Source: a virus
Taxonomy: Duplodnaviria; Heunggongvirae; Uroviricota; Caudoviricetes
Length of the DNA stretch: 38,859 nt
Virus record (IMG/VR): IMGVR_UViG_2563366883_000017
Reading direction: 5' to 3' (one strand)
The translations under genes and the position numbers were made by a program. Of the stretch, positions 15,736 through 16,548 are shown piece by piece (position 1 is the stretch's first letter; every line of letters starts with the position of its first letter). Under the pieces are notes generated by a model that was given only the letters and a program-made list of their open reading frames with translations, made no database searches and was not told where the DNA came from.

Positions 15736-16548
15736 AACCACCTCCTCCAAAACATGCATTAAAAATGCATCTTTTGGAGGGTTATGTCAAGCTGTTATGA
15801 AACACATAATTGATATGTTGATTAGAGGAGAAGATAGAATAAATATGGTTGTTTTTCGTATAACTATTTGTTTTACTTTTAGTTTATGCATTCTGTGTGT
15901 TAGGAATAAGTTATTAAAGTTTAATCAAAAAATCTCGATGTAGTCCACATAGATTACTGTTACTGAACCTTATTGTGTGTATTAGTTGTGTTCTGAAATT
16001 TCAGCTTAATTATTTATGATGTATTTTTTAACGATAAATATTTTCCCAGGATACCTTTACTGTGTATATAAATAAATTATATACGCATAAATAATGTAAA
16101 GGCGTCCTTTTAGATATATCTTATCAAATGTTAATGACTTGAGTGGGAAATATGATTCCAGCAACTTATCATGTGGCTACTTTATAAAAATAATGCCCAT
16201 ATAAAACAACAAGCGAAAAGGATTACGGATAAAAAAGGAGCGAGATGTGCGAACTTGTTATTTTCCATGTTTAACCACCTTAAATAATTGATGATGACGG
16301 GATGATTGCATCTGTAATGCTTTTATTGAAATGTTATGATAAAAAAGAACTTTTGCATAACATTAAAATGTAATTTATCTAATCGTTTTTAATAATAAGT
16401 GTCGTATTTCTATCCTTGTACCAGCTATTTGATATGTAGTGTTTGTTCATGCTATGTGGGGCTTTACACCATAGCCAGTTTATTTATACTTTATTCGTCA
16501 GCCTGAACAACTGGCATCTGCTGCGCTGCGCCATCGAGAGATTGAGAA

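Follow-up and report, generated by a model that had tools for sequence, protein, structure and literature searches.

Several kinds of short bacterial and phage genes come close to the locus described here. The toxins of the Ibs and ShoB class resemble its 28-aa peptide in size and in having a hydrophobic C-terminal segment. Phage morons, such as bor and lom of lambda and the morons of HK97, are autonomous promoter-gene(-terminator) units expressed from the prophage. In addition, the small membrane proteins of E. coli K-12 include single-helix proteins of 16-50 aa, of the YohP type, which were found by ribosome profiling or tagging.

The locus lies in a window of 38,859 nucleotides from a virus of the Caudoviricetes (IMG/VR record IMGVR_UViG_2563366883_000017), in the spacer between a DUF1971 (YeaR-like) gene and a DUF1367 gene (Table 1). 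This spacer is not empty and is made of two modules, a left one at 15736-16181 and a right one at 16182-16526. The explanation favored here, with a probability of roughly 0.78, is that the right module of this two-part spacer is an autonomous minus-strand cassette containing a conserved gene for a small membrane peptide, as judged from sequence comparison.

Extent and Composition of the Spacer

The initial annotation described an AT-rich gap of about 790 bp at 15760-16548, and the composition is as it claimed: GC content is 0.305 over this interval vs. 0.449 for the whole window, and only 0.1% of the 789-bp windows in the whole stretch are as AT-rich. The right end of the gap also holds, but the left end shifts to 15736, giving 813 bp (15736-16548), because the DUF1971 gene most likely starts at the ATG at 15735 chosen by PGAP. 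The flanking genes are oriented as had been proposed, with DUF1971 on the minus strand and DUF1367 on the plus strand; however, the truly divergent pair consists of DUF1367 and the small gene described below, which is co-oriented with DUF1971.

The whole region is found in only ~460 genomes, whereas ~700 more contain only the right 345-368 bp at 73-77% identity. Thus, the region is not one unit. An Rfam scan of 14500-17500 on both strands gave no match at E ≤ 1, no operator-like repeats emerged when the blocks were compared with the window by BLAST, and the H-NS nucleation motif is not enriched in the region (8 matches vs. 4.5 expected). Nothing is annotated in the region in the RefSeq genomes shown.

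Table 1. Coordinates of the features in and around the spacer between the DUF1971 and DUF1367 genes.
Feature	Position	Strand	Remarks
DUF1971 / YeaR-like gene (left flank)	15397..15735	-	112 aa from PGAP start; ORF list, RefSeq annotation of identical locus, Pfam
NsrR-type 11-1-11 palindrome, AACATGCATTAAAAATGCATCTT	15751..15773		Putative; just upstream of the DUF1971 Shine-Dalgarno sequence
Left AT-rich module	15774..16181		GC 0.28; DUF1971 promoter region; no supported ORF
Right module	16182-16526		Mosaic unit
Unannotated 28-codon gene, MENNKFAHLAPFLSVILFACCFIWALFL	16182..16268 (16268->16182)	-	ORF list
9-codon ORF of the initial annotation, MCELVIFHV, Shine-Dalgarno sequence AAAAAAGGAG	16245-16274	+	Antisense image, not a gene
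Shine-Dalgarno sequence of the small gene, UAAGGUGG	16275..16282	-	AUG 6 nt after last G
5' hairpin of the small-gene transcript, AAUGUUAUG-N17-CAUAACAUU	16330..16364	-	RNAalifold
Promoter-like block of the small gene	16365..16400	-	-35 TTATTA (16395-16390), 17-nt spacer, -10 TACATT (16372-16367)
Poorly conserved spacer between the two promoter blocks	16401..16455		60-67% identity, indels
Conserved sigma-70-like promoter block facing the nin/Q genes	16456..16526	+	Followed by shared 5' leader
DUF1367 gene (right flank)	16549..17148	+	
YbcO/DUF1364	17148-17438		After the DUF1367 gene
DUF1133 Q-like antiterminator	17435-17977		After YbcO/DUF1364

A Conserved 28-Codon Gene on the Minus Strand

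The initial annotation found no credible ORF in the gap, a statement that is contradicted by a minus-strand ORF with a coding signature. In the 135 copies examined, which represent 13 DNA versions, this ORF always begins with ATG, ends with TAA, and comprises 28 codons, with no stop or frameshift in any copy, while each of the other five frames is interrupted in at least some versions. Variable sites are distributed 6/6/17 over the three codon positions (chi-square p = 0.015). For the three pairs of lineages, Nei-Gojobori estimates of pS/pN are 0.57/0.13, 0.62/0.07, and 0.61/0.09 (pN/pS of 0.12-0.22), and randomised placement of substitutions reaches the observed synonymous count in 5%, 0.1%, and 0.005% of trials, the comparison of A vs. 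B being the weakest of the three (p = 0.05); since the copies form only three lineages, essentially all from E. coli/Shigella prophages, diversity is narrow and these coding statistics rest on few independent substitutions. The ORF is also better conserved (80%) than its leader (~60%), specifically at non-synonymous sites. By these sequence measures, the 28-codon ORF is a true coding gene on which purifying selection acts.

The first nine residues of the peptide are polar (MENNK.AH) and are followed by a 19-residue hydrophobic C-terminal segment (residues 10-28; mean Kyte-Doolittle value of 2.46), so that the predicted product is a single-pass membrane peptide of the tail-anchored type. The peptide has no match below E = 0.07 in Pfam, NCBIfam, or PHROG, where the weaker matches are unrelated, and it is absent from a collection of 15 billion proteins; its peptide strings were not found in the searchable literature. 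The annotation under the match is "None" in all 40 E. coli genomes among the matches listed. The gene was missed because it falls below the usual cut-off of 30 aa.

Downstream of the ORF, no canonical terminator is found in this window. In loci of the iteAS type, the stop codon is followed by a GC hairpin flanked on either side by A and T tracts, and in loci of the hokD type a T tract serves the hokD direction only. Homology extends no further than the stop codon of the 28-codon gene, for which reason a conserved antisense promoter for the small gene was rejected.

Upstream Elements of the Small Gene

The Shine-Dalgarno sequence of the small gene varies among copies (TTAAGGTGG, TTAAGGTGAG, TTAAAGTGAG, and TTAAGGTAG). 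Types A, B2, and C have UAAGG(U)GG 6-9 nt ahead of the AUG, and B1 has the weaker AAAGUGAG; in the commonest type, the Shine-Dalgarno sequence is weak, AAAGTGAG. The leader of ~90 nt has a single conserved helix, the 5' hairpin, which is the only one that RNAalifold keeps and whose eight outer pairs form in 12/12 sequences. Its arms are invariant apart from three substitutions (in B2/B3, in the C-type, and in the copy L143), its loop is variable, and each type can add a 4-bp inner stem in a different register. All of the arm substitutions leave G.U pairs in a minus-sense RNA but would leave A.C in a plus-sense one, and thus fit only the former, a strand call that amounts to 3/3 transitions (p of about 0.125). 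Every copy examined retains the hairpin, including the C-type. Folding of the whole leader gave a stability that is not unusual (z = -0.28), and a 4-bp helix between the Shine-Dalgarno sequence and the His codon was too weak to claim.

The promoter-like block upstream of the hairpin is 86-92% identical between types, compared to ~60% in its flanks. Its hexamers are invariant except at the third base of the -10, which reads TACATT in A, TAAATT in B and C, and TGCATT in the IS2-disrupted copy L072, with the other variation confined to the spacer. This block is the only upstream sequence shared with the C-type copies, which reside in another genomic context. Since it matches the consensus at 7/12 positions and is missed by simple scans, it is treated as a candidate promoter, from which transcription would start near 16360.

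A second block on the plus strand faces the nin/Q genes. Its candidate promoter, composed of a -35 TTTACA (16463-16468), a 16-nt spacer, and a -10 TATACT (16485-16490), has the best score in the region (10/12). The block is 90-92% identical between types, with invariant hexamers and changes in the spacer, and it persists both ahead of DUF1367 and ahead of a 92-aa gene followed by DUF968. An inverted repeat around this promoter (GCCAGTT/AACTGGC) is lost in type B1 and was attributed to chance. In the module, non-coding conservation centers on two promoter-shaped blocks, and leader and spacer drift at ~60% identity.

The Plus-Strand Mini-ORF and Other Short Frames

The strong Shine-Dalgarno sequence and 9-codon ORF reported in the initial annotation are present as described (GATAAAAAAGGAGCGAG-ATG at 16245), and the reluctance expressed there to support the ORF as a gene was well placed. 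The ORF mirrors codons 1-8 of the minus-strand gene together with the first 6 nt of its leader. Its Shine-Dalgarno sequence mirrors codons 11-13 (Pro-Phe-Leu), the conserved stretch being the reverse complement of Ala-Pro-Phe-Leu, and the Shine-Dalgarno sequence and ATG together are the reverse complement of codons 8-14. Thus, both are conserved only because they are the complement of the 28-codon gene. Conservation of the mini-ORF had been suggested as a check, and on examination start, length, and peptide all vary: the ATG is GTG in the most divergent (C-type) copies, the Shine-Dalgarno sequence and ATG being invariant only in types A and B; the length ranges from 9 to 12 codons; and the peptide occurs as MCELVIFHV, MCIVVIFHV, MCKLVIFHV, MCKVVIFHV, or MCRFVVFHIYSL/P. 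In the frame of the mini-ORF, pS is 0.12-0.22 and pN is 0.18-0.22, such that pN ≥ pS, and a leader peptide was rejected for this lack of coding constraint. The case is cautionary, as a striking Shine-Dalgarno sequence and ATG may mirror a real gene on the opposite strand.

Other short frames were also rejected. A plus-strand ORF of 38 aa (16171-16287) contains stops in types B, C, and A2, and mimics the pN/pS of the real gene because its frame shares the wobble positions. A plus-strand ORF of 48 aa (15798-15944) has no Shine-Dalgarno sequence, ~13/17 of its changes are non-synonymous, and it also occurs truncated and in variants of 30, 43, and 51 aa. In phage ON470614, this ORF is annotated as a hypothetical protein. 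Within 16379-16506, a minus-strand ORF of 23 aa and a plus-strand ORF of 35 aa are broken in type B by indels that are not multiples of three.

The Left Module and its Putative NsrR-Type Operator

The gene on the left flank matches Pfam DUF1971 (E = 2e-26) and is 41% identical to K-12 YeaR. Its most likely start codon follows the Shine-Dalgarno sequence GGAGGAGGTGG at 15739-15749, and an alternative ATG at 15759 falls within the adjacent palindrome, next to which is a perfect minus-strand -35 TTGACA (15790-15785). The NsrR site of ytfE is AAGATGCATTTAAAATGCATCTT (PMC5320621 Table 4), from which the palindrome differs by two mismatches. An inverted repeat close to AAGATGCATTT-N-AAATGCATCTT, as in NsrR operators, is thus found upstream of a gene for a YeaR homologue, and the NsrR-type pattern has one match in the window vs. 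0 in 100 shuffles. K-12 yeaR carries AAATGGTATTTAAAATGCAAATT at a comparable place. The palindrome is accordingly described as a near-perfect putative NsrR-type operator, and the left module probably serves as the regulatory region of the prophage yeaR-like gene, including this operator.

Matches to the left module are limited to the ~460 genomes carrying the full region, and hence always accompany the DUF1971 gene. The module is ~95% identical to the corresponding sequence of phage vB_EcoS-666R9, apart from a 56-nt indel.

Distribution and Genomic Context of the Right Module

Of 5,426 complete E. coli genomes, 1,176 (22%) carry the right module. The 28-codon gene is unannotated in these genomes, including those of CFT073-type uropathogens, and in inducible phages, and thus represents an annotation blind spot; genes under the cut-off of gene callers stay invisible even in the best-annotated species. 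No copy of the right module is present in Qin or DLP12 of K-12. Searches of phages and plasmids by tblastn found only the same E. coli family, and scans with degenerate patterns for distant homologues yielded nothing new except one further C-type copy.

The module sits between varied cargo (hokD, iteAS, or DUF1971) and two alternative sets of nin/Q genes. Its neighbor on the cargo side is hokD in 78 loci, DUF1971 in 25, iteS in 15, and both hokD and DUF1971 in 6, and its neighbor on the nin/Q side is DUF1367 in 55 loci and hyp92/DUF968 in 57-60. Conservation of the module is independent of both flanking genes. Three genes of the cargo in this window match the PADLOC candidate-defence models Hp1-3. 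In a second context, the cassette is located beside trkG and a tail-fibre gene, a different prophage position that is occupied in L132 and L143, and the copies found there share only the promoter block, hairpin, leader, and ORF. Literature searches on iteA/iteS and on hotspots yielded nothing specific to this site.

Proposed Function and Alternative Explanations

The right module would contain a self-contained minus-strand cassette of ~220 bp, in the order promoter-like block, 5' stem-loop, ~90-nt leader, Shine-Dalgarno sequence, and 28-codon ORF, placed back-to-back with the conserved promoter facing the nin/Q late-regulator genes. The peptide would be transcribed from its own promoter, opposite to the phage early-right operon, which would make it a lysogen-expressed gene of the moron type, and it would probably insert in the inner membrane. 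The likeliest role is that of a membrane peptide of toxin-like or exclusion type, or of a modulator acting on a membrane protein, as suggested by how small and hydrophobic the peptide is and by its fixed position bordering a hotspot that contains hokD or anti-phage cargo. The best guess at present is a lysogen-expressed single-pass membrane peptide, possibly toxin-like. Being conserved at the fixed edge of a site where toxin and anti-phage genes are swapped, the peptide could plausibly take part in lysogen physiology, phage exclusion, or late-gene control. A broader proposal, which is offered as speculation, is that the peptide founds a family of prophage membrane toxins or exclusion factors that has yet to be described, and that it forms the constant right border of a defence/toxin cargo hotspot (hokD, iteAS, PADLOC Hp1-3) of Rac-like lambdoid prophages. 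Lysogens would express it, and in lytic growth antisense read-through from the early operon would oppose it; its action could then be that of an orphan type-I-like toxin, serving abortive infection or addiction, or that of a switch linked to the back-to-back nin/Q promoter.

The initial annotation favored plain AT-rich, H-NS-silenced intergenic DNA containing the promoters and 5' UTRs of the flanking genes, in which case the 28-codon ORF would have arisen by chance. The very low GC content, the empty RefSeq annotation, the lack of an Rfam match, and the promoter-like elements of both flanking genes are consistent with this, and a 28-codon open frame is not rare in AT-rich DNA. However, conservation of the right module independently of both flanks, concentration of the changes in the ORF at third codon positions with low pN/pS, a frame of 28 codons intact in 135/135 copies, a cassette that recurs at another prophage position, and an H-NS motif without enrichment all argue against it, and this explanation is improbable. 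Two of the accompanying expectations were nevertheless borne out, in that the region bears promoter-like elements, for the small gene as well as for both flanking genes, and does hide something small, the minus-strand gene. Little likelihood is likewise given to a non-coding role, in which the conserved unit would be a minus-strand RNA built around the 5' hairpin and the ORF inside it would be incidental. Non-coding conservation is highest in the hairpin and in the block just upstream, the unit resembles sRNA genes in its small size and autonomy, and the commonest type has a weak Shine-Dalgarno sequence, but the leader outside the hairpin is ~60% identical with no other conserved helix, the ORF surpasses it at precisely the sites where amino acids would change, no terminator was found to define the 3' end of an sRNA, and Rfam is again without a match.

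It is very unlikely that the 9-codon ORF is a real leader peptide whose translation controls read-through into the DUF1367-Q operon by attenuation or ribosome stalling. Such a role would agree with the invariant AAAAAAGGAG and ATG in all copies of types A and B, with a position ahead of the late-regulator genes and on their strand, and with the fairly constant core V(I/V)FH(V/I). Against it are the pN ≥ pS of its frame, hypervariable codons 3-4 (EL, IV, KL, KV, RF), a length of either 9 or 12 codons, and the GTG of the C-type copies, and minus-strand codons account for every conserved base. No terminator or attenuator structure was found downstream, where the only conserved helix fits the opposite strand, and the conserved nin/Q promoter lies 200 nt further on, so that transcripts of the downstream genes need not include the mini-ORF. 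Closer to the favored explanation, of which it would be a sub-case, is a type I toxin-antitoxin locus in which a small RNA, antisense or divergent, restrains a membrane-damaging 28-aa toxin. This arrangement is possible, though doubtful: an Ibs- or ShoB-like size and hydrophobic C-terminal segment, a promoter-like block of its own with a structured 5' end, a prophage location with hokD adjacent in most loci, and a plus-strand -10-like TATAAAAAT within the coding sequence for Phe-Leu-stop all speak for it. Yet conservation stops at the stop codon, and no antisense -35 is therefore conserved; upstream of the promoter block, the C-type copies have nothing in common with the others, and thus no divergent sRNA gene is conserved; and within the cassette no terminator for an antisense RNA was found on either strand. 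An RNA that is unconserved or unconventional would escape such a comparison. The cassette is also single-copy, with no tandem repeats, and no family match was found.

Comparison With Known Systems

The favored cassette shares with the type I toxin genes (Ibs/Sib, ShoB/OhsC, and hokD) a peptide of <30 aa that consists mostly of one hydrophobic helix reaching the C-terminus, as well as a candidate promoter of its own, a structured 5' end, a prophage site, and omission by gene callers. It differs from them in that the peptide resembles no curated family, the sequences compared reveal no conserved sRNA partner, whether antisense or divergent, and the leader of ~90 nt has one conserved helix. Like phage morons, the cassette is small and autonomous, with a GC content of 0.27 vs. 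0.49 in the neighboring phage (nin) genes; its direction opposes that of the early operon, related prophages may have or lack it, and it occupies two prophage positions. In contrast to described morons, it is far smaller, its terminator is evident only in iteAS-type loci, and it forms the constant piece bordering variable cargo instead of the cargo itself. The resemblance of the mini-ORF to attenuation leader peptides, a strong Shine-Dalgarno sequence and short ORF upstream of a regulatory operon on the same strand, is an antisense artefact; unlike such leaders, its frame is unselected, its length and start codon vary, and no attenuator accompanies it.

With the small membrane proteins of K-12, the predicted peptide has in common a similar length, a single-helix architecture, and an overlooked short ORF with a conserved frame, whereas the gene itself is absent from K-12 and belongs to the accessory prophage pool. 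Across the spacer, the DUF1971 gene, as in the NsrR-repressed yeaR-yoaG promoter of K-12, is preceded by an 11-1-11 NsrR-type palindrome. The prophage copy differs in occurring here without yoaG and in having a site nearer to the ytfE optimum than that of K-12 yeaR, and this near-perfect putative operator suggests that the prophage yeaR-like gene may be wired into the nitric-oxide response of the host.

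The AT-Rich Gap and Its Content

The window represents a Rac-like lambdoid E. coli prophage, and strain LD39-1 and others carry DNA 100% identical to it, with sieB, ydaF, and essD/rrrD close by. The initial annotation described a very AT-rich gap at 15760-16548, which is borne out by a GC content of 0.305, the window as a whole being at 0.449; so high an AT content occurs in just 0.1% of 789-bp windows. The flanking genes it named, YeaR-like (a DUF1971 gene) and DUF1367, are also correct, but its limits are not. In RefSeq, the DUF1971 gene starts at ATG 15735, 3′ of the strong SD GGAGGAGGTGG (the alternative start at 15759 falls within a palindrome), so the true gap is 15736-16548, which is 24 bp longer. 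The gap is composed of two modules. What it really contains is a small gene that had been overlooked, plus two or three promoter/operator elements (see table). The initial observation is confirmed in part, and its interpretation is supported in part. The last 49-60 nt upstream of the DUF1367 start (16500-16548) are ~96% identical in O157:H7, O111, and other prophages without the rest of the module, and thus this leader belongs to the DUF1367 gene, not to the cassette.

Features of the gap and its flanks, with identity between type A (the window) and type B copies
Feature	Coordinates	Strand	A vs B identity	Description
DUF1971/YeaR-like gene		minus		left flank of the gap
NsrR-type 11-1-11 palindrome	15751-15773			AACATGCATTAAAAATGCATCTT, just upstream of the DUF1971 SD
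Small gene (predicted)	16268→16182	minus	0.80	encodes MENNKFAHLAPFLSVILFACCFIWALFL*, preceded by UAAGGUGG
Leader			0.59-0.62
Hairpin	16364→16330	minus	0.69-0.71	AAUGUUAUG-N17-CAUAACAUU; arms invariant, loop free; sole helix retained by RNAalifold
Promoter-like block	16365-16400		0.86-0.92
Spacer	16401-16455		0.60-0.67
Nin-facing block	16456-16526		0.90-0.92
Sigma-70-like promoter	16463-16490	plus		TTTACA-16-TATACT; best promoter match of the region, 10/12
DUF1367 gene		plus		right flank of the gap, followed by YbcO/DUF1364, then a DUF1133 Q-like antiterminator

A Small Gene on the Minus Strand

The earlier statement that the gap holds no credible ORF is contradicted by a minus-strand ORF with a coding signature, which was missing from the first ORF list solely because it has 28 codons. 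The 135 copies of this ORF comprise 13 DNA versions and 10 peptide versions, all of 28 codons, and no stop or frameshift occurs in any of them. The 29 variable sites are distributed over the three codon positions as 6/6/17 (chi-square p = 0.015), and among lineages A, B, and C, pS is 0.57-0.62 versus a pN of 0.07-0.13. With transitions and transversions placed at random in unchanged numbers, the observed synonymous count was reached in 5% (A-B), 0.1% (A-C), and 0.005% (B-C) of trials. At the level of sequence comparison, these values show that the reading frame is conserved and that purifying selection acts on it. The ORF also has an SD, and the blocks and hairpin upstream of it are conserved. 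The C-terminal 19-mer of the peptide is hydrophobic (mean Kyte-Doolittle 2.46), and we rate the ORF as an unannotated gene for a predicted small membrane protein of the prophage.

The competing candidate is a plus-strand 9-codon ORF, MCELVIFHV*, whose GATAAAAAAGGAGCGAG-ATG at 16245 had been pointed out initially and is indeed present. Both this SD and the ATG are invariant in the alignment. The encoded peptide is variable (MCELVIFHV, MCIVVIFHV, MCKLVIFHV, MCKVVIFHV, and MCRFVVFHIYSL/P), its length is 9 or 12 codons, and the differences between types all fall at first or second codon positions. In this frame, pS is 0.12-0.22 and pN is 0.18-0.22, so that constraint is absent, and in C-type copies the ATG is replaced by GTG. 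As to the SD, AAAAAAGGAGC on the plus strand complements the small-gene codons Ala-Pro-Phe-Leu. The mini-ORF is rejected as a gene on these grounds, which upholds the doubt with which it was first reported. Another plus-strand frame mirrors the coding signal because its wobble positions coincide with those of the real gene; stops break this frame in types B, C, and A2. Since the minus strand is constrained and the plus frames are unconstrained or interrupted, we take the minus-strand ORF to be the gene and the mini-ORF to be its antisense shadow.

The small gene has no match in Pfam, NCBIfam, or PHROG, eight of its peptide variants are not among the 15 billion predicted proteins of one collection, and the peptide strings were not found in the searchable literature. 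In phage and plasmid collections, tblastn matched it only in four E. coli phages and, among the plasmid entries, in two records that are E. coli chromosomes, always unannotated; among the 40 matches listed in complete E. coli genomes, none has an annotation under the cassette. Apart from two C-type copies and one Shigella flexneri genome, the gene was found in E. coli prophages only. It is widespread and has clean comparative support, though its discovery is unsurprising in kind.

Putative Promoter, Hairpin, and 3′ End of the Cassette

The divergent C-type copies, in a viral contig (L132:560-870) and a metagenome (L143:9950-10265), encode MENNKSAHYAPFLSIILFVCCFIWALFL with many synonymous differences. 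Their position in the prophage is a different one, with a TrkH/TrkG gene on one side and a tail-fibre-like gene on the other, and they have only ~220 bp in common with the window: the block CTTATTATTAAAA..ATTAGATAAATTA.ATTTTAATGTTATG, the hairpin, the leader, and the ORF. This restricted identity at a different position argues that the unit is autonomous and that the cassette moves as a unit. The genome of the C-type copies also holds NleF-like and AvrPphF-like genes, which resemble type III effectors.

The block at 16365-16400 contains TTATTA (16395-16390), which does not vary, and TA(C/A)ATT (16372-16367), which varies at its third base alone. The two lie 17 nt apart and the other variation of the block falls between them, the pattern expected of a promoter. 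This candidate matches only 7/12 consensus positions and went unlisted in the promoter scans, and for this reason we infer, rather than assign, a small-gene promoter here with a start near 16360. The three substitutions in the arms of the hairpin, G-C to G.U (B2/B3), U-A to U.G (type C), and G-C to G.U (L143), would all keep pairing on the minus-sense RNA only, which is suggestive but not strong. The stem can be extended by 4 bp in each type, in differing registers. Outside the hairpin, the leader shows no unusual degree of structure (z = -0.28).

No canonical terminator follows the small-gene ORF in the window. In iteAS-type loci, the stop codon is followed by a GC hairpin with A and T tracts on both sides, making the terminator bidirectional in form; in hokD-type loci, the T tract serves hokD only. 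At L003:2900-3000 and at L004:2950-3000, it is such a GC-rich hairpin terminator, AACCCGC-NNNN-GCGGGTT, that closes the cargo upstream of the module, only ~20-30 nt from the small-gene stop codon.

A Right Module Between Cargo and Nin Genes

The nin-facing TTTACA and TATACT hexamers are invariant, with substitutions in their spacer, and are retained immediately ahead of the nin/Q-like operon with either set of nin genes. The right module thus holds a back-to-back pair of promoter-like elements ~90 bp apart, one toward the small gene and one toward the nin/Q operon. An apparent inverted repeat around the nin-facing element is not retained in type B1 and was dismissed as chance.

The cassette is present in 1,176/5,426 complete E. 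coli genomes. The whole region occurs in ~460, and ~700 more match the right part only (roughly 16181-16526/16548, 73-77% identity); the module is absent from the K-12 Qin and DLP12 prophages. The right part lies downstream of hokD in CFT073 and HMDUC-17, and downstream of the anti-phage genes iteA/iteS in c1-17 and AR_0069. It is followed by either DUF1367-DUF1364-DUF1133 or a 92-aa gene and then DUF968, RusA, and an antiterminator. Among 125 fetched loci with sufficient flank, the cargo neighbor is HokD in 78, DUF1971 in 25, IteS in 15, DUF1971 with HokD in six, and another gene in one, while the nin neighbor is DUF1367 in 55 and hyp92/DUF968 in 57-60. In the alignment, homology on the cargo side starts exactly at TTTATAAAAATAATGCC, window position 16181.

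Homologous exchange also occurs within this 350-bp unit, as indicated by a recombinant in HMDUC-17 (L006, 3001-3344) that switches type inside the module: the ORF is of window type, the leader and the loop of the hairpin are of CFT073 type, the promoter block and the spacer are again of window type, and the genes downstream are of CFT073 type. In another locus, L072 (IMGVR_UViG_2541047945_000009), the module is interrupted by an IS2 end (TAGACTGGCCCCCTGAATC...), which lies ~60 bp upstream of the small-gene promoter block and separates it from the nin-facing one. Three AT-rich plus-strand genes of the window (11779-14781; GC 0.335; 363, 415, and 218 aa) are devoid of Pfam domains but match Hp1, Hp2, and Hp3, three consecutive PADLOC models (PDLC03004-6; E = 5e-41, 1e-10, and 4e-11). 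The cargo site thus holds a candidate anti-phage system of three genes.

Proposed Expression and Role

The small gene would be transcribed from its own promoter, opposite to the early-right operon, an arrangement that makes moron-like expression in the lysogen probable. The peptide would insert in the inner membrane, with its MENNK.AH end in the cytoplasm by the positive-inside rule, and would have its role at the membrane. Given the adjoining hokD, iteAS, or, in the window, candidate-defence Hp1-3 genes, a toxin-like or exclusion-type role is the most attractive guess. No antisense or divergent RNA partner was found for the small gene, and the cassette is therefore not classed as a type I toxin-antitoxin system. 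In the window, DUF1971 is co-directional with the small gene and lies ~450 bp downstream with no terminator between them, so read-through is possible.

The Left Module and a Predicted NsrR Operator

The left module (15774-16181) is found only with the DUF1971 gene and varies little among copies (~95% identity plus a 56-nt indel). It includes a hydrophobic plus-strand ORF of 43-48 aa (15798-15944; L002:5038-5169 in a fetched locus), annotated as "hypothetical protein" in phage ON470614, which was rejected because its changes are mostly non-synonymous, it has 30/43/48/51-aa variants, and it lacks an SD. A perfect -35 TTGACA lies on the minus strand at 15790-15785, upstream of the prophage yeaR-like gene. 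The palindrome next to this gene differs at two positions from the NsrR operator of ytfE, AAGATGCATTTAAAATGCATCTT (PMC5320621, Table 4), where none such would be expected by chance. The prophage DUF1971 protein is 41% identical to K-12 YeaR, and K-12 yeaR has an NsrR site of its own. The palindrome and the -35 suggest that the prophage yeaR-like gene may respond to nitric oxide as the chromosomal yeaR does.
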